DNA of 64,000 bases. It comes from Kiritimatiellia bacterium (GTDB lineage Bacteria > Verrucomicrobiota > Kiritimatiellia > JAAZAB01). Under the pieces are notes generated by a model. That model was not told where the DNA came from and searched no databases. It saw only the letters and a list, made by a program, of their open reading frames with translations. Made by a program: the position numbers and the translations under genes. The stretch spans positions 31,212 through 95,211 of the forward strand of contig JBMNRV010000001.1 in assembly GCA_050944835.1 (NCBI GenBank), given 5' to 3'. Position 1 is the stretch's first letter. Each line of letters opens with the position of its first letter. This document shows positions 11,090 through 49,721 of the stretch, one piece after another.

Positions 11090-11393
11090 CCTAAAACTGC
11101 GGCAGTTGAAATTCAGGAAACGAGCCCTGAAGGGGCGATATATACCTAGCCCAGGGCGTTGCCCTGGGATTAACGGAAAAATATGAAAACAGCCCTGAAA
11201 GGGCGTGACATAGAAATTCAGGGCAACATCTTGGAATATCGGGGATTGAACACAACTATGTCACGCCCTTTAAGGGCTAATATTGATGGTGTATTGTTTA
11301 CCTAGGGCGTTGCCCTCGGCTGGGTATGTAACGCCCCGTTGGGGCTAATGTCGTACATCTACGACAGACTTGCCAACTGCCGCAGTTTAAGGG
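11090..11393. mobile_element. mosaic intergenic element (hairpin-rich variant) bounded by inverted A-type ends
   Basis: Left end CCTAAAACTGCGGCAGTTG; right end CTTGCCAACTGCCGCAGTTTAAGGG. The interior is made of GCCCTGAAAGGGC and CCAGGGCGTTGCCCTGG hairpins and is repeated in inverted orientation at 32380-32545. Confidence 0.7.
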
Positions 11394-17556: not shown

Positions 17557-17685
17557 TTGATCACTCCTCTGTAAGATTGTTGGCATTAGCGCGATACTTG
17601 TATCGCGTGTGAATAAATTCAATACTATGCTTTTCACACAACAGGTCAAGCCATTAATTGGTTTACACACCGCTTTTCTGTCTGT

Positions 17686-18246
17686 CCTAAAACTGTAGCA
17701 GTTGGCAAGTTTGTCGCAGACGGAGGGGAGAACCACGGATGAACACTGATGGACACGGATGGAGGAGGGGGCGAGATAAACCGCCAAGACGCCAAGGTGG
17801 GGAAGAGGAGAATTAACCGCAGATTGCCGCAGATTAACGCAGGTTTTATCGGAGATATAAGATGACTCGAATGGCAGGCCGCGCTGTCCGCTATGCGGAC
17901 ATGGATTGGCGGACACCCAAGATACACGAATGGATTCGCGTATCAGGGTGTCAACCAATCCGCCGGACCGGCAGATGCCGGTCAGCGCGGCGCTTGAGGA
18001 TAATCCTTTCCCTAATCCATGTCTATCAGGTTAATCCGTGGTTCTTCTGCCAGTGCGGCTCGCACCTCCGTGTGAACCTCTCCTCCTCTACGTCTATCGG
18101 CGTCATCTGCGGTTACATTCTTTGTCTGTTTCTTTCCTGGTTTTCTTGGCGTCTTGGCGGTTCAATCCTATCCGTATCCATCCAGTGGTTCCTCTGGTTT
18201 TCAACACTTTATCTCGTTTCCTGAATTTCAAATACCGCTTTTAGGG
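17686..18246. mobile_element. mosaic palindromic intergenic element, full-length copy R-b (A end, D core +, B end)
   Basis: The A end CCTAAAACTGTAGCAGTTGGCAAG is on the left. The B end CAACACTTTATCTCGTTTCCTGAATTTCAAATACCGCTTTTAGGG is on the right. The arms are built of inverted word repeats. Confidence 0.8.
17883..17990 (+). repeat. D module copy 1 (conserved three-hairpin core of the mosaic element)
   Basis: GTCCGC-TAT-GCGGAC; long stem GGATTGG..GACACCC / GGGTGTC..CCAATCC around the palindrome GATACACGAATGGATTCGCGTATC; GACCGGC-AGAT-GCCGGTC. Confidence 0.8.
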
Positions 18247-18399
18247 ATGACCCTGTTCTGGACATGCCATGTGGATTTTGATATGGTGTGGCAAATTCCA
18301 TGTTGATGTCATGTGCTGGAGTCGCCGGGTTATCCATAATTATTTCGTCTACTCCAGTCTCTGCAACCCTCTATAACGAATGTCTGCATCTTGCTGTAA

Positions 18400-21930: not shown

Positions 21931-23010
21931 ATGAAAAACCGTAAAACAATTCCTGCACACCTCTCTATCCGTACAACCCTGAAGAAGGAAATTCTGGACG
22001 GAAAACATGCTGAGCTTTCGGAAAGCCGTGTAATACAACGCTTCAAAGTGTCAAGCGCGACAGCCCGGCGGGTGTTGAATGATCTGGCTTTGGAAGGACT
22101 GGTATCGCGTCAGGTCGGTCGCGGCAGTATTGTGCGGCAGCCGCATGATCGGGCGTTTCGAGAATATGGGGCTGTTTTTTTTGATATCTTCGATCTGCGT
22201 GATTTCTTCATTGCTGAGATTGTCCGTGGGATTGAAGAACGGGCCAGCTCGAAAGAACATCAGTTGCATCTGTTCACCACCCGCGGCAAACAATTGGATG
22301 ATACGGGAGCATCTTCCATATCCTATCTCGTTAAAAGCCGTAAGATTCATGGTTTGTTTGTCTTATCGCCGTTAGATGCTGGCGCCATCCAGTTTTTCAT
22401 GGAAGAACGGCTGCCTTGCGTTGCGGTTGGAAATAATTATCCCGGTTTGCAGGTGCCGACAGTTATGGCCGACAACCGCCGGGCGATGCTGGATGTCTGT
22501 CACCGTCTTATGCGGGAAGGATTGCAACGCATCGCAGTTGTTGTGCGGCATAACCCACAGCGGGATGTTGAGCGTGGCTGTGATTTTATCGCGCGTGCAT
22601 ATCATGAATATTATGCCGAGTGCAAACTCCACCCGGAACCGGCCTGGTGGCAAGCCGTAGAAGACGAACGTGAAGCGGCAGTTAGCGCGATGAATGCGAT
22701 GAGCGCATTGCCGGCGGCCCAGCGCCCGCAGGCCGTGGTGGTACATGGGAAAAATTTGTCCACCGGAGTGAACGATTTTTTAACCCGCAGCCGCGATTGG
22801 CAACCAGTTCTGGTGCATTTTACGGATCGGCAGGAACGCGCACTCCGCACAATCACCGCGCCATATCGTAAGGTCGGGCGGATGGCCTTTGATTTGATGG
22901 AAGACATGTTTGCCAACCCAACCCGGCGCACCGCGAACGCGCCAGTGTTATTGCCAATGGATATTCATTGGCCACTAAAAACGGCATTTGAAATTCAGGA
23001 AACGAGATAA
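21931..23010 (+). CDS. transcriptional regulator, GntR-type winged HTH fused to a LacI/periplasmic-binding-like sugar-sensor domain
   Basis: N-terminal VSSATARRVLNDLALEGLVSRQVGRGSIV, followed by a PBP-like domain. The last 12 codons and the stop lie inside repeat R-c. Confidence 0.7.
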   Translation: MKNRKTIPAHLSIRTTLKKEILDGKHAELSESRVIQRFKVSSATARRVLNDLALEGLVSRQVGRGSIVRQPHDRAFREYGAVFFDIFDLRDFFIAEIVRGIEERASSKEHQLHLFTTRGKQLDDTGASSISYLVKSRKIHGLFVLSPLDAGAIQFFMEERLPCVAVGNNYPGLQVPTVMADNRRAMLDVCHRLMREGLQRIAVVVRHNPQRDVERGCDFIARAYHEYYAECKLHPEPAWWQAVEDEREAAVSAMNAMSALPAAQRPQAVVVHGKNLSTGVNDFLTRSRDWQPVLVHFTDRQERALRTITAPYRKVGRMAFDLMEDMFANPTRRTANAPVLLPMDIHWPLKTAFEIQETR

Positions 23011-23290
23011 AGTGTTGAGAACCGCAGATTACGCAGATTGGCGCAGATTGGGCGAGGGATACTCGTAGAAGAAGAACCACGGATGAACACTGATGGACAC
23101 TGATCACTGATGAAGGAGTGGAAGGGGTGCCCTGAAAGGGCATGACATACCCAGCTTGTGCGGCTCGCACCGCCAGTGCGGCTCGCACCGCCAGTGCGGC
23201 TCGCACTTACTGCCGTCCCTTCCGTCCCTGCTGTCCCTTCCGCCCCCTTCGCCAGTCCCCGATCAAACCCGCTTGGACTGGCCTTTCAGG
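22975..23290. repeat. mosaic element fragment R-c (B end plus arm words, no D core)
   Basis: CTAAAAACGGCATTTGAAATTCAGGAAACGAGATAAAGTGTTG, CCGCAGATTACGCAGATTGGCGCAGATTG, GAACCACGGATGAACACTGATGGACACTGAT. Confidence 0.8.
23158..23206. repeat. 18-bp tandem repeat (2.7 units), each unit containing a hairpin
   Basis: GTGCGGCTCGCACCGCCA x2 plus GTGCGGCTCGCAC. Single copies of GTGCGGCTCGCAC, or its complement, occur at about 18054 and 47089. Confidence 0.9.
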
Positions 23291-23292
23291 GA

Positions 23293-23397
23293 TACTTTGA
23301 CGTAGCTACCATTAGCCGATACGATTATGTCAATGATGCGACAGGAGGGCGGATTGCCATGAAATACAGCAGGTGCAAGAAGTACTGGTACACATAG
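23293..23397 (+). pseudogene. YD/RHS-repeat gene remnant (no start codon)
   Basis: Translates to ..NPLGLAFQGYFDVATISRYDYVNDATGGRIAMKYSRCKKYWYT*. It is fused to the right end of island repeat E1. Confidence 0.6.
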
Positions 23398-23420
23398 GGC
23401 GCATGAATACAGCCAGCAAT

Positions 23421-23501
23421 CAAAAACTCTGTGTTACGAGAGATAAAGCGCTTGAAATCGCAAAAAAACTTGACTGACCCCAAATACTGCTGACCCCAAA
23501 T
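23421..23501 (+). repeat. island repeat E1 (right end only)
   Basis: ..ACGAGAGATAAAGCGCTTGAAATCGCAAAAAAACTTGACTGACCCCAAATAC TGC TGACCCCAAATA. It ends at the ATG of the next ORF. Confidence 0.85.
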
Positions 23502-23942
23502 ATGCACAAATATGTGCCTGGCCACATGAAGAAGCCCTTTAAACTCTTACTGGTTCTTCTTGTTGTGGCCGTCATTGTGTCACAATTGACTGTAGTTGCA
23601 TGGCAAAGCATCGAACGGCGAGCACTGGCGGACTGCACCCTTCCATCGGGGGAACGATTCCAAGTCTACTACAGATATCATCCAAACCTTCTCATGGCCC
23701 TCACCGGAGTTGGTGGGTTGGAATGCGAATTTTGGAGTGCAACAGGCGATAAGAAGGTGTTTCCGCTTACGGCAAGGACAGACTTCGATATTATTGACGA
23801 TGTCGCTCTCCAGTCTCAGCTTGTAGATGAGCATTCCGTTTGTGTGAGTTGCTCCAGAGGCAAATGGATACTTACGAATACCGGTGAAGCAATTTCGGTA
23901 AACGATACCAATACCGTCTTTGCCCCCTCGCTACGCCGGTGA
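23502..23942 (+). CDS. hypothetical membrane-anchored/secreted protein
   Basis: N-terminal MKKPFKLLLVLLVVAVIVSQL signal anchor (an ATG at 23526 is also possible). I recognise no family. Confidence 0.5.
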   Translation: MHKYVPGHMKKPFKLLLVLLVVAVIVSQLTVVAWQSIERRALADCTLPSGERFQVYYRYHPNLLMALTGVGGLECEFWSATGDKKVFPLTARTDFDIIDDVALQSQLVDEHSVCVSCSRGKWILTNTGEAISVNDTNTVFAPSLRR

Positions 23943-24245
23943 CACGGTGTCTGCTTACGCACACGCCGCGCCACCTTCTCCGCTCGCCCGACGGCACGAG
24001 TTTCAACCAATCCGGAAAACAGGATTGACGCAGAGAGCGTCCGCCTATATGATTACGTTAATAATGGAGCTGGAGGGCGGACTATGGTGAAATATAAAGA
24101 GATGGCCATGCAAACGCTTTCAGGCCTCCCGGCTAATATGCCATTTGTCCGTGTTGAGTTTGATTACGACTATATGAGCAGGCGAGTTGGAAAGACGGTA
24201 TATGAATGGGGCAGTAACGGTTGGAAGGAAGTTTCCTTTAAATAA
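23943..24245 (+). pseudogene. YD/RHS-repeat gene fragment, 100 codons, no start
   Basis: ..RLYDYVNNGAGGRTMVKY..VRVEFDYDYMSRRVGKTVYEWGSNGWKEVSFK*. It is in the same frame as the preceding ORF, separated by one TGA. Confidence 0.6.
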
Positions 24246-24257
24246 TGCCATTGTTTT

Positions 24258-24797
24258 TTGAATGTGAAAAATTCTAACAAGATAAATATTGCCATGGTAC
24301 ATCGGTTAAAAAAAGTTTTAAAACAGATGATCCTAAGCGGAATGTTTGTTGTTATCTTACATTGTAATGGATGTGCCACAACAAGAGAATCTACCAGTTA
24401 CGAGATCAATATTCAGTTACATCCTCAACCTATTAGCGGACAATATCTATTCACTGCTGATATTCATGAGAACACACTAACTGATTACAAAAGACCTGGT
24501 TCTTTCGGAAGCACAGCCAATAACAGGCGTTTGCCATCGCCTAAAATGACGCTTAATGTTGGCGAAGAAAAAAATGTTTTGTTTGAAGAAGATGAAAACC
24601 AACCAGCTGTTGATGCTACAGCCGGTATTCTAAAAGAGCAAGGAGGGGTTTCATTAAAATATCGTGTAAACGTGCGAAAAGGAAACAATAATTTTGTTGC
24701 ATCGGGGGTGGTTTCTCTTGGAAATGACATTAGGACATATGTTAGTCCAGGCGATTCGGCGCCGGAGGAGAAATCAGCAACCCCCGTGGTGAAATAA
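24258..24797 (+). CDS. hypothetical lipoprotein-like protein (AT-rich cassette gene)
   Basis: Probable start is the ATG at 24294 (MVHRLKKVLKQMILSGMFVVILHCNGC). Composition is AT-rich. Confidence 0.55.
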   Translation: MNVKNSNKINIAMVHRLKKVLKQMILSGMFVVILHCNGCATTRESTSYEINIQLHPQPISGQYLFTADIHENTLTDYKRPGSFGSTANNRRLPSPKMTLNVGEEKNVLFEEDENQPAVDATAGILKEQGGVSLKYRVNVRKGNNNFVASGVVSLGNDIRTYVSPGDSAPEEKSATPVVK

Positions 24798-24978
24798 GTG
24801 GGAAAATTGGGGTCAGTCAAGTTTTTTTGTGATTTCATTTGACATAGTGTCCTGGATACGGGGTTAAGGGTGCCATGGCAAGGCGTTGCCCTCTTTGATC
24901 AAAGCAATCAGATGGGAAGACTGTAAGAATGCAAGACGATCTGTCTGTACGAATTTCTCGTCATAACGGTATTAGCAC

Positions 24979-25227
24979 ATGAAATTGTCTGTTTTCTGGT
25001 CACGTTTGGGAATGATTTTGGGCATTTGTCTAAAGGCGCTGTTTGTAGTCCTCCTGGTTTGCTGGTTGTTGGTTTTAGCGATTGGCGCACGTCATGTTAT
25101 CGCAGGCACGACTCCCTTGAGGATTGGTCATGTTGTTGGCGCGTTGATTCCGCCATTTGTCTTTGCACTTGCGTTGGTGGCTTTCTTGCATGGGCGAGCG
25201 AAACACCGTAATCAAGGGACTCTATAA
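24979..25227 (+). CDS. small hydrophobic membrane protein (82 aa) inside E2
   Basis: Has 2-3 predicted TM stretches (ILGICLKALFVVLLVCWLLVLAIG; ALIPPFVFALALVAFL). Confidence 0.4.
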   Translation: MKLSVFWSRLGMILGICLKALFVVLLVCWLLVLAIGARHVIAGTTPLRIGHVVGALIPPFVFALALVAFLHGRAKHRNQGTL

Positions 25228-25230
25228 GAA

Positions 25231-25374
25231 ATGCTGCAAGATAAACTGATGTATGGACTCGGCTGTTGCCGGGCCCCGCTGTTCGCGGCCCTGCTTCTGT
25301 CCTTGGTGACGGTGATCGGGTGCAACGATACCGATTCGTACTTCCGGCGCTTCGTTTCAAGAGATTATATATAA
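25231..25374 (+). CDS. 47-aa putative lipoprotein inside E2 (not in the supplied ORF track)
   Basis: The ATG lies 4 nt after the previous stop. The protein MLQDKLMYGLGCCRAPLFAALLLSLVTVIGCNDT.. has a VIGC lipobox. Confidence 0.35.
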   Translation: MLQDKLMYGLGCCRAPLFAALLLSLVTVIGCNDTDSYFRRFVSRDYI

Positions 25375-25410
25375 CTGCTTCCAATTTTTTAGGGGAAGTC
25401 CAGTTGGTAA

Positions 25411-25602
25411 AATAGGTTTGACGCTGCGACCATTAGCCGGTACGATTATGCCAATGATGCGACAGGAGGGCGGATTGCCATGAAATACAGCAGGTGCAAA
25501 AAGTACTGGTACAGCTCCATAGGGCGCATGAACGCAGCCAGCAATCCAAAACTCTGCGCTACGAGAGATAAAGCGCTTGAAATCGCAAAAAAACTTGACT
25601 GA
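25411..25602 (+). pseudogene. YD/RHS-repeat remnant fused to the E2 right end
   Basis: Stop-bounded frame NRFDAATISRYDYANDATGGRIAMKYSRCKKYWYSS..DKALEIAKKLD*. The frame beyond KYWY is not conserved in the other copies (4-nt indel). Confidence 0.55.
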
Positions 25603-25718
25603 CCCCAAATACCCCTTGACTGACCCCAAATACGTAGATGACCCACGCGGCGAATTCTGGGCTCCGGATATAGAAGAATATTTATAATCTGCGCACAATA
25701 CAGCTAGGAACGATTACG

Positions 25719-26468
25719 ATGGGAAAAATTGCCTTTTTGCCGATTAAAAGATTTGCTTTTTTATTCCTATGTGCTTTATCGGCCTGTAATACTCCAATAA
25801 ATAATGATTCAGAGAAATTATGTATTGTTTATGCTCCTGGTGTTGTTGATGATGGTATACGGAGGGAGCCATGCTGTATGGTTACGCAACGAATATACGA
25901 TGTTTGTAATTCACAATTAATCGTGTATTACGGAGACGGAAATGCACATACACAAAATATAGATTTATCCGATAATGACATAAACGATATATATGCAGCA
26001 TTTAAGAAATATAAAATATTGGAAATAGACAAGGGAAATTGGTTTAGCGGAGCAATAGTAATGGGCACAAACGTGTATATTGATAATATATATATTAACG
26101 TTGTATCGACAAATTATACTCGTGTGCCACCCCATGAAACAAGAACACATATTTATTATAATCAGGGTAAAGAATCGGTTCACCTTGTAGTTTTGAATTA
26201 TCCGTTTTTGAAAAAAAAGCATGATGAATTATCGACAAAAGCAATAAAAATATTGGATTTGATAGATTCAAAACTAAATAATTGCGGAATAGATTATTTT
26301 TTCGGCCTTGGAAGGCGGTACCCTCCATTTTTCCCGCAGACAAGGATGGCTGTGACAGTCCACCAAGATTCATCGGTGTTAAACACGACGAAAAATCAGG
26401 CAGAAACGGGACTTGATGAGCGAAAAAGAAGCAATGTCGAGGGGGCCGAGGGCAAGAATGATCCGTAA
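25719..26468 (+). CDS. hypothetical lipoprotein (249 aa, strongly AT-rich)
   Basis: Signal peptide with lipobox FLCALSAC. I recognise no family. Confidence 0.6.
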   Translation: MGKIAFLPIKRFAFLFLCALSACNTPINNDSEKLCIVYAPGVVDDGIRREPCCMVTQRIYDVCNSQLIVYYGDGNAHTQNIDLSDNDINDIYAAFKKYKILEIDKGNWFSGAIVMGTNVYIDNIYINVVSTNYTRVPPHETRTHIYYNQGKESVHLVVLNYPFLKKKHDELSTKAIKILDLIDSKLNNCGIDYFFGLGRRYPPFFPQTRMAVTVHQDSSVLNTTKNQAETGLDERKRSNVEGAEGKNDP

Positions 26469-26501
26469 TAAATTATGCTCTAGTCAGGAAATTTGGAGAA
26501 A

Positions 26502-26767
26502 TTTTGGGGTCAGTCAAGTTTTTTTTTATGATTCTACCTGACATAGTGTTCTGAAAATTGGATTAAGTGTCCCAAGGTGGGCACCGTGCGTGCGCAATAT
26601 TGGCCGCGTGGTTGAAATTTGGGGTTGACGCGGACTGGGTGTCGTCGCCGTATAATGACTCTCGCAAACTGTTATAGGCGGAGTTAATCTAAAACTCCGC
26701 GCTAAGAGACAAAGCGCTTGAAATCGCAAAGAAACTTGACTGACCCCAAAATACTGACCCCAAAATA
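26502..26767 (+). repeat. island repeat E3 (266 bp, IR-bounded, short form)
   Basis: Left TTTTGGGGTCAGTCAAGTTTTTTTTTATGATTC. Right TGAAATCGCAAAGAAACTTGACTGACCCCAAAATAC TGACCCCAAAATAC. The core is shared with E4 and contains TTGACG (26625-26630) and TATAAT (26651-26656). Confidence 0.9.
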
Positions 26768-26963
26768 CAAAATACAAAAATACTCGTGGAGGAAACACTC
26801 TGAGCAAAAAAACATGTTTTTAAATTGACATGTTTTTTCGTATTTTGCACACTGCCAACCATGCAAACACTTGTTCATATTGATGCCGGTGGCTGTGTGT
26901 GCCTGCATTGGCAGAAAAGCAATTTCTTACCAGTTCAATCAATAAGGAATTAATTGAAAAGTG

Positions 26964-27500
26964 ATGAAAAAAATTGTAGCATTCGCCGGAAGTAATAGTT
27001 ACGTATCAATCAATAAGGAATTAATAAAATATACAGCAGCGAGCTTGGGGCAATTTGATGTCAATTTTTTAGATTTAAATGACTTTGAAATGCCTGTTTA
27101 TTCGCTGTACCGCGAAAAAAATGAAGGAGTACCCGAGCAGGCACACCGTTTCAGAAAATTGATGCACGAGGCTGATGGTATTGTACTGTCGGTTGCGGAA
27201 CACAATTGGAGTATAGCGGCTACATTAAAAAATTTACTGGATTGGTGTAGCAGGGTAGATATGAACATATTCAATCACAAGCCCATGCTGCTGATGAGTG
27301 CATCGATAAGCAAAGCCGGTGGTGTGCAGGCTTTGAATTATATGCTCTATGTGAAAGATAAATTTAGTATGAATGTGGTTGAAACTTTTTCGCTCCCATC
27401 GTTCAATCACAGCTTTGCTGATGGCAGAATTACGGATGAATATTTGAAAACCGAGCATAATACTAAGGTAACCACATTTGCAGAGCGTGTAGGCAGGTAG
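26964..27500 (+). CDS. NADPH-dependent FMN reductase family protein
   Basis: MKKIVAFAGSNS, ADGIVLSVAEHNWS and LKNLLDW match the FMN_red family pattern. Confidence 0.75.
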   Translation: MKKIVAFAGSNSYVSINKELIKYTAASLGQFDVNFLDLNDFEMPVYSLYREKNEGVPEQAHRFRKLMHEADGIVLSVAEHNWSIAATLKNLLDWCSRVDMNIFNHKPMLLMSASISKAGGVQALNYMLYVKDKFSMNVVETFSLPSFNHSFADGRITDEYLKTEHNTKVTTFAERVGR

Positions 27501-27566
27501 AGCGGGAGTTCTCCAAAAATAAGCGGGTAGGAGAGGGGTTAAAATCGTGGAATAATTATTCTGAGT

Positions 27567-27635
27567 GGACTTTCCCCAAAAATTCTGTCATTCCATAAAG
27601 ATCAGTCCGAGCGGGTTAAATTCGGGGTCTGGCGG
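27567..27635. repeat. short repeat module also present in the mosaic-element blocks outside the island
   Basis: GGACTTTCCCCAAAAATTCTGTCATTCCATAAAGATCAGTCCGAGCGGGTTAAATTCGGGGTCTGGCGG. Related copies occur in the opposite orientation at 32550-32610 and 47571-47639; partial copies are at 32140-32190 and 57447-57495. Confidence 0.8.
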
Positions 27636-27749
27636 CTTGTACTGGTTCCATTTTCCATGGCGCGTAAAAGAGTCTCCCGATACCGTCGGCAATAGCGTAG
27701 TAGATAAACTCAACAACACCGTAAATGCGCTTGGCAGCATTAGGGAAAT

Positions 27750-28166
27750 TTTTGGGGTCAGCCAAGTTTTTTTGTGATTCTACCTGATATAGTGTTCTGA
27801 AAATTGGATTAAGTGTCCCAAGGTGGGCATCGTGCGTGCGCAATATTGGCCGCGTGGTTGAAATTTTGGGGTTGACGCGGACTGGGTGTCGTCGCCGTAT
27901 AATGACTCTCGCAAACTGTTATTGGCGGAGTTGATCTGAACTGAACCGGCAATGTGCTTGGACTGGATACGCATGGAATTGGGCATGGGTGATCGCTCGT
28001 GTTGCAATCATTTGATAGGATTCCTGAAAAATCTTTGAAAAACTCCGCGTTACGAGAGATAAAGCGCTTGAAATCGCAAATAAACTGCGCGCCTACACAA
28101 ATACACACGAGAGATAAAGCGCTTGAAATCGCAAAAAAACCTGACTGACCCCAAATACAAATACAT
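27750..28166 (+). repeat. island repeat E4 (417 bp, IR-bounded, E3-like core plus insertion and duplicated right end)
   Basis: Left TTTTGGGGTCAGCCAAGTTTTTTTGTGATTC. The right end ACGAGAGATAAAGCGCTTGAAATCGCAAA is present twice (28061-28089, 28107-28135) and is followed by CCTGACTGACCCCAAATAC. Confidence 0.9.
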
Positions 28167-28250
28167 ACCGTAATCGGTAGGAGAAAGCTTGCTATTGTGC
28201 ATGCTCGTAAACCAGCTCGCATTATACTTGTGTCAACAAGGAAAAACTGA

Positions 28251-29108
28251 ATGGCCAAGTCTCGTTATATACCGCTACTTGTTGCAGTGTGCTGTTGTGC
28301 TTTTGGAATCTCGGAGGAGACGGAACGATCAAAAGGCTTAGAAGATAGTGCTCTTATCAAGCTTTCGCCAAAAGAAGCGATTGAGTTTGTCTGGATATCT
28401 GAATTAGATGTCTGGGTGGGCAAATACGAGGTGACGCTCGGTCAATTTATTCATATGTCCAGACGTGCAGCCAAGTACCCTCATGAGTTTGCTGGTCGAT
28501 TTGTTGAGAATGGTGATGAAATGAACGCTCCGGCCGTGATGGTGGGGTGGAAAGAAGCTAATGACGCATGCAGGTTTCTCAATCGTCAATACGGTCATTT
28601 GTTGCGAGATGGTTATATATTTCGGCTCCCAACAGAAAGCGAATGGGACGAAATTGCGAGATGCGGAGATGATCGGATATATCCATGGGGCAATGACTGG
28701 CCACCGGTACCAATGGCTGACGGTATTTTGCCAAATCTTCAAGGTGTAGAAGTCATTTCTATTAGTGGACGGACGCCACCAGCGATTCGTTCCATTCCTG
28801 GCTATAGTGACGGATGGCCGTCGGTTGCGCCAGTTAAGCATAGCGGTGCCAATGACTGGGGTGTCTTCGGTCTTGCTGGCAACGTTCAAGAATGGTGTGA
28901 AGGTTGGTATGACCGAGGTCGAGGTTTAAGATTGCTAAAGGGTAGTTCTGCTGGCTCATTTCAGCCAGTCGACTGCAAAATTACTGCCCGCCATGCAGTA
29001 GAAGGCCAATCTACTTTCAGGGGGTTGTTTCTTTGGGGGGAAGTGCGAAATCAAGGGCGATCGTACACAGGTTTTCGGATAGTCGTAGGGCAGCCTATCA
29101 TCAGATAG
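28251..29108 (+). CDS. secreted formylglycine-generating-enzyme (FGE/SUMF1) domain protein
   Basis: Signal peptide, WVGKYEVTLGQF, PAVMVGWKEANDACRFLN, RLPTESEWDEIAR, YPWGNDWP, GLAGNVQEWCEGWYD, GFRIVVG. Confidence 0.8.
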   Translation: MAKSRYIPLLVAVCCCAFGISEETERSKGLEDSALIKLSPKEAIEFVWISELDVWVGKYEVTLGQFIHMSRRAAKYPHEFAGRFVENGDEMNAPAVMVGWKEANDACRFLNRQYGHLLRDGYIFRLPTESEWDEIARCGDDRIYPWGNDWPPVPMADGILPNLQGVEVISISGRTPPAIRSIPGYSDGWPSVAPVKHSGANDWGVFGLAGNVQEWCEGWYDRGRGLRLLKGSSAGSFQPVDCKITARHAVEGQSTFRGLFLWGEVRNQGRSYTGFRIVVGQPIIR

Positions 29109-29124
29109 CGGATAACGGAGACTA

Positions 29125-29200
29125 ATGGAACCAGACAGAGCCATAGAGATTATACATAGTCTTGCCGACGTGGTTGACCATATAGCGGCGAGCGATTCCC
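29125..29200 (+). repeat. cassette-junction repeat, copy 1
   Basis: ATGGAACCAGACAGAGCCATAGAGATTATACATAGTCTTGCCGACGTGGTTGACC.. (MEPDRAIEIIHSLADVVD..) recurs at 30578-30653. Both copies begin 13-16 nt after the stop codon of the preceding ORF. Confidence 0.85.
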
Positions 29201-29464
29201 GTCCGACTCTCCCTACCAGCACGCCGACACGGTCTGTGCGTTGCACCTGGCGCTTGAGGGACTGACCCATCTTCTACCGTTTAAAAAATTGAAGTGTTGA
29301 TAATCAACGACTTACAAAAGCGACAGATGCCTGTGCCAAGCAAGCGTCCAAGCCCCGAGGTTTCTTGTGCTAGACCTGCTGCATGAAAACCAAACAACAT
29401 GCAGGTATGGCGGAGCTGTGCGCGGCGAACAGCAGTGCAACGCTAGGAACTGGTTCAAGGATGA

Positions 29465-29737
29465 CAGCAGGCTTTAACCGGCGGTAGAAATAGGTTTGAC
29501 GTAGCGACCGTCACCCGATACGATTATGCCAATGACGCGGCTGGCGCAGTAGTGGCACACTTGCTTTGGTGTCTAGTACCCATTGGTTTACTAGAACCTG
29601 TCCGAACCGCAAGTATGGTCGTTGGTGCACTAAGTGTGAATGAGCGGGAAGGCTATGACCAATCCAAGATCATTACTTATTGTCTTCATCATTGCTCATC
29701 TTCTTGTGCAAGTCTCGGCTTTTCTCGTCTCGCTTGA
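29465..29737 (+). pseudogene. YD/RHS-repeat fragment continuing into a unique tail of about 65 codons (orphan C-terminal-module-like)
   Basis: Stop-bounded frame QQALTGGRNRFDVATVTRYDYANDAAG|AVVAHLLWCLVPIG... It has no ATG (GTG at 29552). Homology to the E5-linked copy (30838-30964) ends at GCGGCTGG. Confidence 0.45.
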
Positions 29738-29987
29738 TGATCGTGTTGTGCCAACTCATCCGGGCTATTCGCGGTCATTGGAGCGACGTGTCGCCGTAGC
29801 CCAAGTGATTACGGCGGTCGTCGGTGTGCCGTTTTCGACCCTCTTGTGGTGCGTGCCCTTGAAGGCATCAGGTTCTTGGAGTCAGTTCGCCGCATCCGTG
29901 TACGTCCATGCTTGGCCTCTTTGGATGCTTTTCAATACTACGATTTGGGCTTTGGTTTTTCGTGGACTGTTACGTCGTTTTTCGTGA
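29640..29987 (+). CDS. hypothetical small membrane protein
   Basis: Hydrophobic stretches LLIVFIIAHLLVQVSAFLVSL and VITAVVGVPFSTLLWCVPL. It overlaps the tail of the previous frame. Confidence 0.4.
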   Translation: MSGKAMTNPRSLLIVFIIAHLLVQVSAFLVSLDDRVVPTHPGYSRSLERRVAVAQVITAVVGVPFSTLLWCVPLKASGSWSQFAASVYVHAWPLWMLFNTTIWALVFRGLLRRFS

Positions 29988-30120
29988 CCGCGCTTATGTC
30001 GGTGAAGATTCGTATCGCTCATCCCAATGGTGTGGGTAAACGTCCGGTCGAGCACTCCCTATACAGGTTTGTTATGATGTGCTAGACCTGCTGTATGAAA
30101 CCATGCAACGGAGGTGTCGT

Positions 30121-30564
30121 ATGAAGAAGGTATTTCTAGGTGTCTTTCTGGGTGCCGTTATCGCGTTTGGGTTGTTGTTGGTTGTTTTTTTTGCGATGCC
30201 TTCTGAGCGCCGTTTGTCAGACCTTCATACGACGGGATTTCGTCTCGCAGACCGAAGTAGTGTTTTGTATTTTGCGAAATATTTACCGGACACCCTTTCG
30301 CCAGAGTCCTTTGCGGGTGTTGTGATTATTGATACTAACCTAAGTGTCATTGCCTCGCGCATACTTCCGCCAGAATTGTTGCATGGTGAGGAACTCATAA
30401 TTGAAGCTGATAAAGCACGTGAGCGACTTCAGGTTCGGAATTCAACTTCCCAAGTGGCTGTTCGTTGGTCTGTTGGTAGCCAAGAGTTTGAGCTCTGTAC
30501 CAATGCCTTGGAAAACCCGCTCGAAAATGCACAGCTGATTCTGAAATCCATCAGAGCGCGGTAG
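30121..30564 (+). CDS. hypothetical membrane-anchored protein (147 aa)
   Basis: The ATG at 30121 gives MKKVFLGVFLGAVIAFGLLLVVFFAMPS. It is preceded by the junction repeat TGTGCTAGACCTGCTGTATGAAACCA. Confidence 0.45.
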   Translation: MKKVFLGVFLGAVIAFGLLLVVFFAMPSERRLSDLHTTGFRLADRSSVLYFAKYLPDTLSPESFAGVVIIDTNLSVIASRILPPELLHGEELIIEADKARERLQVRNSTSQVAVRWSVGSQEFELCTNALENPLENAQLILKSIRAR

Positions 30565-30577
30565 TGGCAGCATTCAC

Positions 30578-30653
30578 ATGGAACCGGACAGAGCCATAGA
30601 GATTATCCATAGTCTTGCCGACGTGGTTGACCCATACAGCGGCGAACGGGCCA
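30578..30653 (+). repeat. cassette-junction repeat, copy 2
   Basis: MEPDRAIEIIHSLADVVDPYSGE.. The frame runs directly into the left IR of E5. Confidence 0.85.
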
Positions 30654-30661
30654 CTGGAAAA

Positions 30662-31108
30662 TTGGGGCCAGTCAAGTTTTTTGTGATTTTATTTGACATA
30701 GTGTCTTGGATATAGGGTTAATGGCGCCATGGCAAGGCAATTACGGGGTGAATGCTTTGGCGCGCTTTATCACATCACATAATGGCACGAGAGGCGTGAG
30801 CCGATAGTATCTGGTGATGCTCTAGGTGCACGAAGTTGTGCGCGGCGGACAGCAGTGCAACGCTAGGACCTTGTTCAAGGATGACAGCAGGCTTTAATCG
30901 GCAGTAGAAATAGGTTTGACGCTGCGACCATCACCCGATACGATTATGCCAATGATGCGGCTGGACGACGGATTGCCATGAAATACAGCAGGTGCAAGAA
31001 GTACTGGTACACATGGGGCGCATGAATGCAGCCAGCAATCCAAAACTCCGTGCTACGAGAGATAAAGCGCTTGAAATCGCAAAAAAAACTTGACTGACCC
31101 CAATACTG
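30662..31108 (+). repeat. island repeat E5 (447 bp, IR-bounded, contains a YD remnant at 30886-31026)
   Basis: Left TTGGGGCCAGTCAAGTTTTTTGTGATTTTA; right TGAAATCGCAAAAAAAACTTGACTGACCCCAATAC. Confidence 0.85.
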
Positions 31109-31246
31109 ACGCCGTCATTACCTGATCTTATTGAGCCGCCAACAACAAAACCTGAGTGGCCCAGTTGGCTGGATTGGTTGGATATTATTAGAAAAGGCTG
31201 GGATTGGATTAGGGGACGCGATTGAAATATAAACTTGAGGTTTTAT

Positions 31247-31870
31247 ATGTATAAGAAAGCAAATATATTTGCTTTGTTTTTTATTGTATTGTCCATTGCA
31301 TTTGGTGATGATTTTGGCGTTAATGGTAAAGAATTACTAATAAAACTTTCTTCGGATGATTACTTTGAACGAACGTCGATATTGAAAAGTGTTGCCTTAT
31401 ATGGAGAATCACATGCATTACCACAAGAAATTACGGAACTGCTGTTATTGCAATACCACAAAGAAACAGATTGGCGTATAAAGGTGCGGATAATATTGGT
31501 GCTTAAATATTCTGATGACAAGAAAAGTGTTCTTCCTTTTTTAGTGCAATGTCTTAATGATCGTGAACCTTGTTCTGGCGGGTCAGGGCTGGTGCCTTCC
31601 ACTGCGGCAAAAGTGATTTCTGAAATAGGTGATGTCTCGACCTTTGAGCCGCTTAAAAGGTGGGTTGATTTTTTAAAAAAAGCCCCTTATGCCGAAGATG
31701 TTAATGAAGAATATAGCAATGAAATGTTGAAGCTAAATGCTGGTTATCTGAAAACGTTACAAGCGCGGATTACGGAAAAGTCTGATGGATATAATAGTCC
31801 AACCAATCCGGTGCCGGAAAAACCAACGAATTCCGGGGTGAAAAGCAAGGCGGACGGCGGGGGGAAGTGA
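31247..31870 (+). CDS. secreted HEAT/armadillo-like repeat protein (tentative)
   Basis: The ATG at 31247 gives MYKKANIFALFFIVLSIAFG. Helical-repeat-like segments are present (DWRIKVRIILVLKY..VLPFLVQCLND..TAAKVISEIGD). Composition is AT-rich. Confidence 0.5.
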   Translation: MYKKANIFALFFIVLSIAFGDDFGVNGKELLIKLSSDDYFERTSILKSVALYGESHALPQEITELLLLQYHKETDWRIKVRIILVLKYSDDKKSVLPFLVQCLNDREPCSGGSGLVPSTAAKVISEIGDVSTFEPLKRWVDFLKKAPYAEDVNEEYSNEMLKLNAGYLKTLQARITEKSDGYNSPTNPVPEKPTNSGVKSKADGGGK

Positions 31871-32205
31871 TAAAAACAGTGCGTGGAAACGGCGGACAGC
31901 CGGGATAAACCGGAAGCAGACCGATTGTGGCAGTGCGGATGTTGGCATGGGCGCTCCGTAGTATGCCACGAAAGCTGCGGAGACAGCATCCACGCCAACC
32001 GCCCGCTTGCGGTCCCGCTCCAGCAGAGAGTGTGCCGGAAGACCGTCCCCCCACTGCCTCCGTCGTTGACGGGCCGCTACGAGATGCGGCTAAAAGATGA
32101 ATTGGGCGTTGTGGCGCCGACGTACGCAGCGCCAAGCCGCGCGGACTGGCCTTTGATTAATCGCCAGATTTTTGGGGAAAGTCCACACGCAAATACCAGG
32201 ACATC

Positions 32206-32242
32206 CCCCAAAAAATTGGAAGCAGTTATATATAATCTCTTG
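32206..32242 (-). repeat. inverted copy (36/37 nt) of 25358-25395
   Basis: CCCCCAAAAAATTGGAAGCAGTTATATATAATCTCTTG compared with the reverse complement of CAAGAGATTATATATAACTGCTTCCAATTTTTTAGGGG. Confidence 0.85.
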
Positions 32243-32258
32243 TAAGCAAACGACATGA

Positions 32259-32610
32259 CCTAAAACTGCGGCAGTTGGCAAGTTTGTCGCAGATGCGCGG
32301 CGCGACAGAGGGGAGAACCACGGATGAACACGGATTAACACGGATGGTCTCACGGAGGAGGAGAACCGATAGACGTAGATGGTGAAGGGTAGCCCTTTAT
32401 AAGGGCGTAACATAGTTGTGTTCAATCCCCGATATCCCAAGACGTTGCCCTGAATTTCTATGTCACGCCCTTTCAGGGCTGTTTTCATGTTTTCCCGTTA
32501 ATCCCAGGGCGTTGCCCTAGGCTGGGTATGTCATGCCCTTTCAGGTCCCCGCCAGACCCCGAATTTAACCCGCGCGGACTGGTTTTTGATTAATGGCCGG
32601 ATTTTTTGAC
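32259..32610. repeat. mosaic element block R-d (A end, arm words, then an inverted copy of the 11.1-11.3 kb hairpin block)
   Basis: CCTAAAACTGCGGCAGTTGGCAAGTTTGTCGCAGATGCGCGG, GAACCACGGATGAACACGGATTAACACGGATGG, GCCCTTTCAGGGC hairpins. Confidence 0.8.
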
Positions 32611-32634
32611 AAAATTCTCTCGCGTAAATATCAC
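32606..32634 (+). promoter_or_regulatory. candidate sigma70-type promoter upstream of clpB
   Basis: TTGACA, 17 nt, TATCAC. A CTTGAAA element follows at 32634-32640. Confidence 0.3.
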
Positions 32635-32746
32635 TTGAAAACGTCAATGTAATTTATAAAATGTATTGCCGATGTTTCGTAACCCTGCGCCGTAACCCCA
32701 CAAGTGTTTCGTGCGCGTAATCATTTGACGGCAAGGAGGGTGTTCA

Positions 32747-41744: not shown

Positions 41745-42206
41745 TTAGACTTTCACTTTCACGACGATCTTTTGCACCGTGACAGGTGTGCCGTCCATTA
41801 AGCCGGGCATGTGTCCATCATCCGGTGTGAAAATCGCAAAAAAGCCAGCGGGCATGCGGAAAAAGCTGCCCGATTCCGCCATGGGCCCGCCGAAGAGTTC
41901 ACAATCCTTTTCTTCATCATAGGGCTGGTGCACAGTCAGAGATGAAATAGGGGCGTATCCCATGATCTCTGAACCGCTGGCAATGTACTGAATGTCAATA
42001 TACCGGCGGTGCGCTTCCCAAATGCCGGCGCTGCGTGGCCTGGTTTGGTATTCCTGCGACAGGGCATAGACGGCATCGCCGTCAATGACATGCCGACCCA
42101 GCGCCGGTAGCTGGCGACTGTGCTTGGTTAAAAAACGCAGACCGGTCGCAATGTGGGCTTCCAGCCCATGATAAAAAGCGGCATTCTGTAATTTATCAAT
42201 AACCAT
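41745..42206 (-). CDS. YhcH/YjgK/YiaL (DUF386, EbgC-like) family protein
   Basis: ATG at 42206 (MVIDKLQNA); HRRYIDIQYIASGSEIMGY and FAIFTPDDGHMPG motifs. Confidence 0.75.
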   Translation of the reverse strand: MVIDKLQNAAFYHGLEAHIATGLRFLTKHSRQLPALGRHVIDGDAVYALSQEYQTRPRSAGIWEAHRRYIDIQYIASGSEIMGYAPISSLTVHQPYDEEKDCELFGGPMAESGSFFRMPAGFFAIFTPDDGHMPGLMDGTPVTVQKIVVKVKV

Positions 42207-42222
42207 AACGCCTTTGGATAGA

Positions 42223-42864
42223 TTAACAAAAACCGGCATAAACCGCTTCGGCCAGCGCCAGACTACCGGTGGCATTGGGGTGCACCGGTTCCGAGGATAA
42301 CATATCCGCCGGCTGTGTCAGAATAATTTTTTGAAACATCTGGTGCGTCCGCACCAGACGGGTTTTGTACTGCCGACTCAGTTTATGCACCACAGCCAAG
42401 TATGTTGGCAGTAATTGCAGCATGTCATGCCGGAAGTTGTTGGGAAAGGTCTCCGAGCTGATGTAAAAAGGCTCGATCAGGATGATTTGACATTTCGGCA
42501 GGGTTTTACGGGTGCGATCCAGAATCTCGCGGTATTTCTGCTCGTAGAGTTCAGGCGGAACGGCTATTTCGAGCTTGCGCATATAGTTGAGCAGGTCGTT
42601 AATACCGATCTGAATGGACAACCAGTCAGGACGCATCCGCAAAACGTCGTCCGTCCAGCGTCTGGACAAATCCACTACTGTATTGCCGCCGATGCCTTTG
42701 TTTAGGATTGTCACCTGTTTTTCCGGTTCGCGGATGATCATTAAATCGCGGAAAAACCGGACGTAACCATTGCCGAGTGGGAAGCTATCCGCACGCCGCC
42801 CGCCATCGGTAATGCTGTCGCCTGCAAACAGAACGGTTTGTTTCGATTTGATTTTAGTTGGCAT
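42223..42864 (-). CDS. SGNH/GDSL hydrolase (paralog B)
   Basis: MPTKIKSKQTVLFAGDSITD, with the same block structure as 3386..4030. Confidence 0.8.
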   Translation of the reverse strand: MPTKIKSKQTVLFAGDSITDGGRRADSFPLGNGYVRFFRDLMIIREPEKQVTILNKGIGGNTVVDLSRRWTDDVLRMRPDWLSIQIGINDLLNYMRKLEIAVPPELYEQKYREILDRTRKTLPKCQIILIEPFYISSETFPNNFRHDMLQLLPTYLAVVHKLSRQYKTRLVRTHQMFQKIILTQPADMLSSEPVHPNATGSLALAEAVYAGFC

Positions 42865-43031
42865 ATCAAATTCCTTTTTATGTGTAAACACACACGATCC
42901 GGACTGTAAAGCGCAAATATCCATGAGTACTAGCGCAAAAAGCCGTCTAAGTCAATAAAGCAAAGCGGCTCCAGTGGACACAATTCCATAGGGTAATGAT
43001 TTGCAGCAAAAAAACCAAGAGTTAAATTGGT

Positions 43032-43112
43032 CCTAAAACTGCGGCAGTTGGCAAGTTTGTCGCAGATGCGCGGCATTAGCCCCAACGGGGCGTGACATAC
43101 CCCGTTGGGGCT
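43032..43112. repeat. mosaic element fragment R-e (A end) ending in a perfect 13-bp hairpin
   Basis: CCTAAAACTGCGGCAGTTGGCAAGTTTGTCGCAGATGCGCGG, then AGCCCCAACGGGG-CGTGACATA-CCCCGTTGGGGCT (43078-43112). Confidence 0.85.
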
Positions 43113-43915: not shown

Positions 43916-44130
43916 GGGAAGAACCACGGATAGACACGGATGGACACTGATGTGTTGGAAAAAGGAAAGGCGATAGCAAAAGAAGATGTTTATAGAGCAG
44001 GGTGTCAACCGATCCGCCAGACTGGCAGATGCTGGTTAGCGTGGCGTAAGTTATGCAATCTGAAAATCTTGCTTCTTCCTGGCTCCGTGTTTGTCCGTGT
44101 TCTGGTTCCTCTTGTTCTCAACATTTAATC
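43916..44130. repeat. mosaic element fragment R-f (arm words plus right half of the D core)
   Basis: GAACCACGGATAGACACGGATGGACACTGATG; half D core at 43999-44047 (AGGGTGTCAACCGATCCGCCAGACTGGCAGATGCTGGTTAGCG). Confidence 0.75.
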
Positions 44131-45165
44131 AGAGGTATAGAAATACAGGCTCTCTCTATATTACGCCGCTCTCCGCGGGGAGCCCATCGCGCCGAGTTTG
44201 GCTACAGTAAGGTTTTTCCGGCGACCGCCCTTTTCCCAACCGGAGCCAACCGGCTTTTTGTCGGCGATAATCTGCGCGTCATGCAAAGTCTGCCGAGCGG
44301 CTCAATTGACCTTATTTACCTTGATCCGCCGTTCTGTTCCGGGCGTAATTACAATGCCGTTGTCGGCGGCAAAAAGAAAGTCCGCTATTTCTCAGATACT
44401 TGGTGCGGCGGTATGGCGGAGTATATTGTTTGGCTCAATGTCCGGCTTTGTGAGATGAAACGGTTGCTGTCCGCTAAGGGCACGCTCTTTGCTCACCTGG
44501 ATCGTCGGGCTGTGCATTACGTGAAATGCGAACTCGATAAAATTTTTGGTTCAGATAGATTTATCAACGAGATTATTTGGCACTATACCGGAGGCGGACG
44601 TAGCAAGTCCTGCTTCTCCAATAAGCATGATACCATCCTCTGGTATTCCAAAGGGGATGTCTGGACGTTTAACATTAACGATGTTCGTGTGCCCTATAAA
44701 GACACCAGTGGATACGCCAAGCGGGGCATCGTCGGGGTTTCCGGCAAAAAATACATGCCGCATCCCAACGGAACTCCGGTTGACGATGTCTGGGATATCC
44801 CGATAATTAACCCGCTTTCGCCTGAACGCGTCGGTTACCCAACCCAGAAGCCGGAGCAGTTGCTTGAGCGCATCATTAAAGCCGCATCGTCTGAAGGTGA
44901 TGTCGTTGCTGATTTCTTCTGCGGCAGCGGAACCACGCTTGTCGTGGCGCAACGCCTGAATCGCCGTTGGGTAGGGTGTGACCGATTGCGTCTTGCAACG
45001 ACGATTACCGCCAACCGGATAACACGCGCGATAGAGGACAAACTTTGCAAGCGGTTTCCCGTGCCAGATTATACCATTGAGCCTTGTTGCGCTTGTAAAT
45101 CGCATCCGGATAAAGGCGGGCGCGGAGCTGCGGGGTACAAGGGTGGTCGGGGCGGAGGGATTTGA
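44053..45165 (+). CDS. beta-class (N6/N4) DNA methyltransferase, apparently solitary
   Basis: Motif [11 protein letters not shown] comes before motif I FFCGSGTT, and [13 protein letters not shown] is present. The start is uncertain: the ATG at 44053 lies inside repeat R-f and the next ATG is at 44281. The stop lies inside tRNA-Pro. Confidence 0.75.
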
Positions 45166-45220
45166 ACCCTCGACCTTTTGGTCCCGAACCAAACGCGCTA
45201 CCAGTCTGCGCTACGCCCCG
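45144..45220 (-). tRNA. tRNA-Pro (anticodon CGG), CCA encoded
   Basis: Hand-folded cloverleaf: CGGGGCG TA GCGC AGACTGGTA GCGC G TTTGG TTCGGGA CCAAA AGGTC GAGGG TTCAAAT CCCTC CGCCCCG A CCA. Confidence 0.9.
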
Positions 45221-45301
45221 TACATCGCACTACATGTCGAAAGTTGAATAAAATATAATAAATGCCGCCGGAGTCAAATTAAATCTGCATCGCCCGCAAA
45301 T

Positions 45302-47496: not shown

Positions 47497-47570
47497 TGAG
47501 CCTTTTACGGGTATGCCTGAAAGTGGAAAAGTGGTTTTCTGAATTAGCCCACAACGCCCTTTCAGGGCAA

Positions 47571-49545: not shown

Positions 49546-49588
49546 AGGGTAGGGGGTGTCAGCCGCTATTTACAGGGCGAGCTAAGGC

Positions 49589-49665: not shown

Positions 49666-49721
49666 ACATCCAGAAGGCATATCCTATCACTACATGGTAA
49701 TCCGGTCAACGGCGAAAACGC

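Follow-up and report, generated by a model that had tools for sequence, protein, structure and literature searches.

A small-gene island of an uncultured digester bacterium is probably a decayed tandem array of orphan Rhs modules interleaved with an inverted-repeat-bounded element

Islands of orphan immunity genes are thought to shape coexistence in dense microbial communities and have been described mostly from Proteobacteria and gut Bacteroidales. Here we compare with them a locus in a 64-kb stretch of contig JBMNRV010000001.1 (called the window throughout, meaning the whole stretch of DNA that was analysed), whose host is an uncultured bacterium of anaerobic digesters and wastewater. The locus, an island at positions 23296-31870, consists of small genes for exported proteins, blocks of which are separated by copies of a repeat with terminal inverted repeats (IRs) that we call element E. 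Our analysis indicates that this island probably originated as a tandem array of orphan Rhs toxin/immunity modules, which has since decayed and has been rearranged through recombination between repeats.

Orphan Rhs tips recombine, as in the Salmonella LT2 rhs-orphan (PMC3967940), and H-rpt, which resembles an insertion sequence, is classically located inside E. coli Rhs elements with C-terminal tips (PMC3032704). Our locus resembles the orphan Rhs arrays of enterobacteria, in which tandem modules comprise a conserved piece of Rhs core, a variable toxin and a small immunity gene, and in which homology blocks are prone to recombination. Unlike those arrays, the modules in the window have neither core nor toxin and no full-length rhs gene beside them; the repeat is a short, IR-bounded, non-coding element, whereas H-rpt is 1.3 kb long; and the host is an uncultured digester bacterium, apparently no proteobacterium. 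In the T6SS (type VI secretion system) of Vibrio cholerae, displacement of effectors leaves arrays of orphan immunity genes, with homologous recombination as the proposed driver (PMC5361080). The island likewise has the form of a co-oriented, mosaic string of retained immunity-like genes whose toxins appear to be gone. The Vibrio arrays, however, form the 3' end of a T6SS cluster and follow a live effector, while the 64 kb analysed here contain no secretion system or live toxin, and IR-bounded repeats separate the genes of the island but not those of the Vibrio arrays.

The rAID-1 (recombinase-associated acquired interbacterial defence) clusters of Bacteroidales combine orphan immunity genes with intergenic repeats that are reminiscent of integrons (10.1101/471110; PMC12247911). 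They are the closest described analogue of a run of co-oriented, short, low-GC (guanine plus cytosine) genes with repetitive intergenic sequences, and the island shares with them co-oriented genes of ~100-300 codons, a GC content below that of the host and a predicted content of orphan immunity genes. E modules and Rhs 5' blocks match the intergenic repeats of rAID-1 by description only, and the rAID-1 GC cut-off of 41%, which is Bacteroidales-specific, takes in only four island genes. Unlike rAID-1, the island has no XerD-like tyrosine recombinase gene at its 5' side. Its upstream neighbour encodes a GntR/LacI-type regulator according to Pfam, and a Pfam scan of 33 open reading frames (ORFs), each 150 aa or longer, from the parts of the 64-kb window beyond the island, three of which had no Pfam match whatever, returned no recombinase, integrase, invertase or transposase family. 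The repeats also differ from those of rAID-1 in being long, IR-bounded and partly made of Rhs debris, and no homology to Bacteroidales immunity genes was found.

Integrons and clusters of attC sites lacking integrases (CALINs) were the comparison drawn in an earlier, first-pass annotation of this DNA, which had also stated that the window holds no integrase, invertase or transposase gene and that the repeats are without attC core motifs. Both statements agree with our results. The island is like a CALIN in that one-directional small genes lie between imperfectly palindromic repeats with no integrase nearby, the 33-ORF scan having yielded no IntI or Phage_integrase-type match in the window. Unlike attC sites, which measure 57-141 bp, E copies measure 266-830 bp, lack the R''/L''/L'/R' organisation and the GTTRRRY core, hold their two arms hundreds of bases apart and carry promoter-like motifs and gene debris. 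The island contains five GTTRRRY and three RYYYAAC motifs, none of which coincides with an E boundary. The integron-like interpretation is therefore partly supported as a description, the locus being modular and cassette-like as first proposed, but not as a classification: attC architecture, core motifs and an integrase are all absent, and it is the DNA between the two IRs that is conserved rather than sequence surrounding the gene blocks. The first-pass annotation could name no described system with such an architecture; in our reading its organising principle is that of a decayed orphan Rhs toxin/immunity array, so that the locus is essentially known in kind and is no new integron-like system.

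The island stands out by composition and by its IRs. Its GC content is 0.45, compared with 0.543 in the rest of the window; the flanking housekeeping genes have values of 0.53-0.60, and the stretch from ~23.5 to 32 kb drops to 0.38-0.50. Nine genes of 82-285 codons, all on the + strand, range from 0.36 to 0.51 (0.54 outside), with the lowest single-gene values, 0.36-0.39, in p249, p179, p207 and the flavin mononucleotide (FMN) reductase gene (the last about 0.40). Signal anchors, lipoboxes or multiple membrane-spanning helices can be recognised in their translations. The AT-rich island of one-directional small genes for secreted proteins and lipoproteins, seen by eye in the first pass, is thus confirmed by calculation and translation. 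The IR, searched as the 22-mer TTGGGGTCAGTCAAGTTTTTTT with at most three mismatches, matched nine times, always within 23462-31103 and strictly alternating in orientation (- + - + - + - + -). Elsewhere in the 64 kb there was no match and shuffled sequences gave an expectation of zero, as the earlier claim of IRs unique to the island within the window would have it. The IR arms, 29-38 nt long and 89-97% complementary, delimit four complete E copies and one partial copy (E1), all co-oriented (Table 1).

We consider an Rhs origin of the remnants in the island very likely, and multiple comparisons point to it. First, we found five copies of an Rhs 5' block, D3, starting at 23297, 24025, 25418, 29496 and 30916, which the first-pass annotation had overlooked. 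Their translation, ...(R)YDYxNDAxGGR..., resembles a YD repeat; the Rhs fragments of the window, too short for significance in Pfam, were not confirmed there as YD repeats. Second, a search with the fragment at 24021-24242 against 1.8 billion representative proteins gave 44 homologues at E<=1e-3. The best of these (P0026-P0031, 328-386 aa) have N-termini that are 82-86% identical to the fragment and continue into an Rhs core (FLYDAWNLIAEQ, GGxGGL, YxYDxNGNV, YEYSPFGE, NPFRFSxKYTDDET and YYGYRYYSPxLGRWLSRDP), after which come tails that are mutually unrelated; judged by these features, the six proteins are orphan Rhs C-terminal toxin modules, and they belong to arrays in which toxin and small genes stand in tandem, from the same digester metagenomes. 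Remoter homologues of the same fragment match Pfam RHS_repeat with values of up to 5e-38. In the window itself, an Rhs core ending in ...RYYxPxxGRWxSRDP and followed by a variable toxin is absent from all ORFs, none of which passes '...GWKEVSFK*', and in three other D3 copies the Rhs frame breaks after ...AMKY, where the E tail begins. Because cores and toxins occur only in relatives (P0026-P0031 and the contigs L022 and L023), we describe the array as decayed.

Third, the contigs L022 and L023 contain what the island seems to have lost. They carry tandem genes for Rhs C-terminal (Rhs-CT) toxins, each followed by one or two small genes for lipoproteins or multi-pass membrane proteins, and their modules are preceded by the window's own blocks D17, D5, D3 and 29265-29339 at 79-96% identity. 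An intact module consists of the upstream blocks D17/D5/D3, a frame of ~330-390 codons that encodes the last YD repeats, the Rhs core and a variable toxin tail, and then one or two small genes for lipoproteins or membrane proteins, presumably immunity genes. At the DNA level, 24021-24245 is 83-87% identical to modules in L021-L023, and the inter-module DNA of the island matches L022 and L023 at 93-96% identity over 29265-29339 and at 85-89% over 29366-29544. Upstream of p147, 30034-30100 is a remnant of a module 5' region (D17) with an 88% match to L023 1923-1989. Intermediates of decay were also found: P0032 has an Rhs fragment fused to a lipoprotein signal peptide, and in L021 copies of 23923-23995 (96%) and 24014-24236 (87%), ordered as in the window, stand ahead of an intact Rhs-CT gene. 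L022 comes from JGI sample 3300049647, which is also a source of contigs of the window's own strain, and L022 and L025 alike share JGI samples with contigs of that strain.

Fourth, strains differ by replacement of a gene cassette, with breakpoints in repeats. The organism of the window, whose contig is about 120 kb long, is present in JGI 3300049647, 3300058954 and 3300062814 and in ENA ERZ925054/SRR3184675. Three samples yielded same-strain contigs that are colinear with the window. By contrast, a variant strain, 98-99% identical and independently assembled in three ENA samples (L012, L013 and L020), keeps E1, p146, the Rhs fragment, p179 and the left module of E2 but swaps 24880-29421, a stretch of 4.5 kb with three gene blocks, for a different 1.07 kb. 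Lost with this stretch are the E2 interior, p249, E3, the FMN reductase gene, E4 and the gene for a protein with the fold of formylglycine-generating enzyme (FGE); gained are a repeat of the genome-wide kind, an Rhs fragment of 76 codons and a gene for a new lipoprotein. Homology stops at 24879, the inner edge of the E2 left module, and resumes at 29422, the start of D5; E5 is retained in the variant strain (L019). A comparison of strains at the repeat boundaries, which the first-pass annotation had proposed as a check, thus did reveal structural variation. Since the breakpoints lie in repeated modules and not at the IRs, they are what would be expected for homologous recombination. In the account that we favour, the Rhs 5' block has survived five times while all Rhs cores and toxins have been deleted or displaced, and homologous recombination between the many repeated blocks, Rhs 5' blocks as well as E ends, would account for the gain, loss and exchange of gene blocks.

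The ends of E are themselves boundaries between sequence contexts. In L018 an unrelated left flank starts exactly at the outer end of the E3 IR-L (left IR); in L024 and L025, from two samples, ...CCCCAAATAC runs straight into an intact Rhs-CT gene, 20 nt ahead of the start codon; in L023 a four-module array closes with an E left module after its last gene; and L007 has yet another left flank beside E. These junctions bear on the possibility that the island is a site-specific cassette system of integron or rAID type, in which a tyrosine or serine recombinase, its gene lying beyond the window, would act at the IRs and so capture and excise the gene blocks as cassettes. The exact breaks in homology at outer IR ends (L018, L023 and L024/L025) are as such a system would produce, stuttered copies of terminal ...CCCCAAATAC at right ends point the same way, and co-oriented short low-GC genes with repetitive intergenic sequences are three of the four defining features of rAID-1. 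We nevertheless judge this explanation very improbable. No recombinase family was found among the 33 ORFs across 64 kb and no attC-type motif at the E ends; recombination between neighbouring sites in alternating inverted orientation would invert DNA rather than excise it; the best-supported breakpoints, 24879 and 29422, are off the IRs; and the L022 and L023 arrays hold at least four modules without E between them.

What, then, is E? Copies range from 266 to 830 bp and form two subfamilies, E1/E2/E5 and E3/E4, the latter pair sharing 93% identity across 204 nt. Internally, E is conserved for ~85 nt from its left end and for 52-75 nt from its right end, and the gene blocks outside are unique. 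Because the conserved sequence is inside the IRs, the repeated unit runs from IR-L to IR-R (right IR), like a transposable element, and not from IR-R through genes to the next IR-L; a gene block as the mobile unit was rejected, as conserved subterminal sequence would then fall outside. E1 (23296-23489) is 91% identical to 25417-25632 of E2 and to 30915-31108 of E5. E2 is a composite: its left module measures 84 nt and its right module 200 nt, with 520 nt of unique DNA in between. The right part of E1, E2 and E5 has absorbed the Rhs upstream block, and the same junction of Rhs block and E tail is present in all three, which argues that they arose by composite duplication and not by three insertions. 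All right ends terminate in ...CCCCAA(A)TAC, and in many cases partial, stuttered copies come after it. The coordinates first assigned to E1-E5 were right to within ~10 nt, except that E1 begins ~125 nt earlier and that E2 is not a single unit; similarly, the statement that no IR copy interrupts an ORF is true of intact ORFs, but the right modules of E1, E2 and E5 hold a piece of a truncated Rhs gene. The only notable predicted fold is the terminal stem, which in E3 comprises 25 bp (z -6.0), and an Rfam search of the island gave no credible match.

We consider it about as likely as not that E is an element of the type of a miniature inverted-repeat transposable element (MITE). Terminal IRs of ~31 nt, conserved subterminal sequence, a compact form of 266 nt, lack of coding capacity and division into subfamilies are MITE-like. 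L007, L018, L024 and L025 contain E3 copies that have other flanks and share 92-100% identity among themselves. Unlike a MITE, E has no target-site duplication and no autonomous parent that we identified, and its copies are all co-oriented and located mostly beside Rhs or immunity modules. In our account E would be a non-autonomous MITE-like element interleaved among the gene blocks. An ordinary burst of MITEs in a horizontally acquired AT-rich islet, with the small genes as unrelated accessory genes and the Rhs pieces as incidental debris, seems unlikely to us. Such a burst would suit the terminal IRs, small size, absence of coding capacity and two subfamilies of E, the general richness of this genome in intergenic repeat families, and cassette proteins that are ORFans without matches to immunity families. 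It sits poorly with the absence of target-site duplications, with the common Rhs-block/E-tail junction of E1, E2 and E5 and the composite duplication that it implies, with the shared orientation of five copies out of five, and with the other contexts of E, mostly Rhs arrays (L023 and L024/L025); nor are five Rhs 5' blocks in 8.5 kb incidental. Exact-pattern scans for the IR in collections of genomes, metagenomes and viral contigs gave chance matches and L007, but these collections omit the window and L023 and leave the genome-wide distribution unaddressed. Copies throughout the genome with target-site duplications, an outcome that the first-pass annotation had named as a refutation, did not come to light in these collections, which lack this genome. 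A census of E through spurious called ORFs that run across it returned the known copies only.

Two other identities were considered for E. A Tn3-family identity was rejected, there being no 5-bp duplication and no inner TAAG motif; the outermost 10 nt of E (GGGGTCAGTC) had been set against GGGGTCTGAC, which we take to be the Tn3 counterpart. Separately, just inside the left end of E5 and behind a conserved TTGACA...GGTTAA motif, 30729-30818 translates as MARQLRGECFGALYHIT*WHERREPIV. This peptide, with its stop, is weakly similar to the N-terminus of an IS200/RAYT-type Y1 transposase (E 0.05, not confirmed) and may be a pseudogenised form of it, and searches for a Y1 transposase in 30729-30818 gave no Pfam or PDB match at E<=10.

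The position of E relative to genes raises a further possibility, that of a bank of invertons in which each E is flipped by a trans-acting invertase and so switches the immunity-like gene downstream. In support, 31-nt IRs of a single sequence common to all copies flank 200-770 bp with promoter-like hexamers directed toward the next gene: TTGACG-17-TACGAT in the Rhs block of E1, E2 and E5 matches the sigma-70 consensus, and E3 and E4 have a perfect TATAAT. Moreover, in five of five window copies, and in L024 too, the right end of E has a co-oriented start codon 18-210 nt downstream. We regard an inverton bank as very unlikely all the same. None of nine contig-level observations of complete E copies, from at least six samples, was inverted, which is weak evidence because assemblies report the majority orientation only; the window has no invertase; the promoter-like motif of E1, E2 and E5 is part of the inherited Rhs 5' block and is found without IRs in intact arrays; and E2 contains 520 nt of unrelated DNA with ORFs. 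More broadly, it is improbable that the IR modules are functional in either sense, with a recombinase encoded elsewhere inverting promoter segments to make immunity genes phase-variable or shuffling cassettes, in which case the island would be a non-Bacteroidales counterpart of rAID made from Rhs remnants. In the account that we favour, a decayed Rhs array interleaved with E, the element may also supply transcription, its right end always facing the start of the next gene and its promoter-like hexamers pointing the same way.

The small genes are read as immunity genes because they occupy the same position as the small genes of intact arrays, which likewise encode lipoproteins or membrane proteins. 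We lean slightly toward this role. If so, the remaining genes for small exported proteins would be orphan immunity genes that still protect against Rhs toxins of kin or competitors. The best positional candidate for a former cognate immunity gene is p179, which follows the truncated Rhs ORF; homologue searches found only variants of at least 95% identity, making it an ORFan, and its single-sequence AlphaFold2 (AF2) model is all-beta (mean confidence score, pLDDT, 67) with no PDB fold match below E 0.02 in Foldseek. For p249 the AF2 model was unusable (pLDDT 35). The multi-pass membrane protein p115 has counterparts in kind in L022 and L023, where small proteins with several transmembrane helices also stand behind Rhs toxins. 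Among the island proteins Pfam recognised no more than FMN_red (5.8e-30), FGE-sulfatase (4.5e-20) and, weakly and below the gathering score, HEAT_2 in p207 (1e-3), and PADLOC and NCBIfam gave only generic FGE-fold and FMN-reductase matches for the cassette proteins. The best PDB sequence matches of the FGE-fold protein are non-enzymatic PorK/GldK-type lipoproteins, and FGE enzymes align to it only to residue 221, short of the catalytic Cys region. FGE-like proteins without catalytic cysteines are a described T6SS immunity family, Tsi3 (10.1101/2021.05.21.445229), with which this candidate was compared.

Several observations weigh against the account of a decayed and reshuffled Rhs array with retained immunity genes and a once-mobile E. 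Searches of the island proteins against Pfam, NCBIfam and PADLOC returned no known immunity family except the FGE fold, and no island protein is homologous to the small genes of L022 and L023. The FMN reductase, cytoplasmic and enzyme-like, does not fit an immunity role. Between the window and the variant strain p179 has eight nonsynonymous and four synonymous codon changes, and in JGI 3300049647 (L009 10001-10752) a single indel splits p249 into ORFs of 157 aa and 91 aa, reflecting either a population-level pseudogene or an assembly error. The 64-kb window has no full-length rhs gene and no secretion-system gene. With respect to E, target-site duplications are absent on direct reading of the flanks at E2-E5 and in L007, L018, L023 and L024, the flanks sharing only an A/T-rich extension of the IR and the conserved ...AAATAC at the right end; no empty E site was found and no autonomous partner identified; E positions are identical in all comparable strains; and promoter-like sites number 19 where shuffled sequence gives an expectation of 16.7, which is not above chance. 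Finally, the coverage of L007, L017 and L018 is only 0.6-1.4x, and these contigs may be chimeras joined at the repeat.

If our account is right, the logic known from other orphan immunity islands, with toxins lost, immunity-like genes kept and modules swapped between strains, extends to an uncultured digester bacterium. The locus adds lineage-specific lipoprotein and membrane-protein immunity candidates, with matching intact Rhs toxins in the same metagenomes, and a new IR-bounded repeat that travels with Rhs arrays. Were this repeat a site of recombination or inversion, it would have implications for the acquisition and regulation of immunity repertoires. For now, the result amounts to a good annotation that extends known biology modestly.

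Table 1. Features of the island and its right border, with positions in the window. IR-L and IR-R, left and right IR of E; D3, Rhs 5' block; D5 and D17, further upstream blocks of Rhs modules.
Feature	Position	Strand	Description
E1	23296-23489	+	Right module only: D3 23297-23366, 120-nt tail, IR-R 23453-23483
p146	23502-23942	+	Small protein with N-terminal signal anchor; candidate orphan immunity gene; one codon change in variant strain
Truncated orphan Rhs C-terminal module	24021-24245	+	74 codons ending '...GWKEVSFK*'; Rhs core and toxin deleted
p179	24258-24797	+	Putative lipoprotein; starts 12 nt after truncated Rhs ORF
E2 (composite)	24801-25632	+	IR-L 24807-24837, D3 25418-25487, IR-R 25578-25608 plus 24-nt partial duplicate
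E2 interior ORFs	24979-25227; 25231-25380		82-aa membrane ORF; 49-codon lipoprotein fragment
p249	25719-26468	+	Lipoprotein, lipobox LSAC, GC 0.36; candidate orphan immunity gene
E3 (compact form)	26491-26774	+	~266 nt; IR-L from 26503, IR-R 26719-26749; perfect TATAAT inside
FMN-reductase-like gene	26961-27500	+	NADPH-dependent; FMN_red 5.8e-30; GC 0.40; no signal peptide
E4 (E3 type)	27739-28158	+	IR-L 27752-27782, IR-R 28124-28154; extra truncated right-end copy 28039-28086
FGE-sulfatase-fold protein	28251-29108	+	Secreted; FGE-sulfatase 4.5e-20; candidate immunity protein, compared with Tsi3 family
Inter-module region	29125-29565	+	Decayed ORF X 29125-29194, conserved block 29265-29339, D17 29366-29388, D5 29411-29544, D3 29496-29565; internal repeats D5, D13 and D17
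p115	29640-29987	+	Small multi-pass membrane protein; candidate immunity gene
p147	30121-30564	+	Signal-anchored protein
E5	30656-31108	+	IR-L 30662-30692, left module, D5 30831-30964, D3 30916-30985, tail, IR-R 31072-31103
p207	31247-31870	+	Secreted, GC 0.39; candidate immunity gene; last island gene
Right border	31871-32746		32016-32110 resembles the array end of L023 (76% match to L023 7635-7730)

Some further features of the arrays and of the window were recorded. The intact orphan Rhs-CT arrays, L022 1-5266 and L023 1-7868, have toxin tails that are unrelated to one another and either cysteine-rich or of no known type, and the small genes after these toxins belong to no Pfam family; new toxin/immunity pairs can be drawn from the two arrays, which stem from digester metagenomes. 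A decayed small ORF, X (MEPDRAIEIIHSLADVVD...), found at 29125-29270 and 30578-30660, is a conserved part of the inter-module DNA in Rhs arrays, and a longer X in L022 (2290-2570) reads ...LQSLADGGDP...DSPYQQADTVRALHLALEGL...PWNEDEEQELLREFDAKFDVEEIEAK....

At the right border of the island, the segment 32016-32110 is followed by genome-wide intergenic repeat families and then by clpB; these families recur at 11.1, 43.0, 46.9, 50.2 and 55.6 kb. The genome is unusually repeat-rich. Further intergenic repeat families, 30-500 nt long and 78-100% identical, lie between housekeeping genes throughout the window and on both island flanks (11092-11392, 17683-18268, 22975-23155, 32256-32620, 43030-43102, 46885-47637, 49720-50311, 55644-56137 and 61655-62158), and some include GC-rich hairpins of the type GCCCTGAAAGGGC. 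Two tRNA-Pro genes on the - strand (45139-45226 and 49584-49670, anticodons CGG/GGG), 90% identical over 88 nt, both adjoin copies of intergenic repeat families, and a solitary gene for an N6/N4 DNA methyltransferase (44053-45165, Pfam N6_N4_Mtase 1.7e-51) lies between repeats and a tRNA-Pro gene, no search for a restriction partner having been made. Duplication is also seen among protein-coding genes: a pair of GDSL-lipase genes in inverted orientation (3276-4132 and 42119-42965), 38 kb apart, is 81% identical over 860 nt, and two carbamoyltransferase paralogues of the OTCase/ATCase family stand in tandem at 50394-52484.

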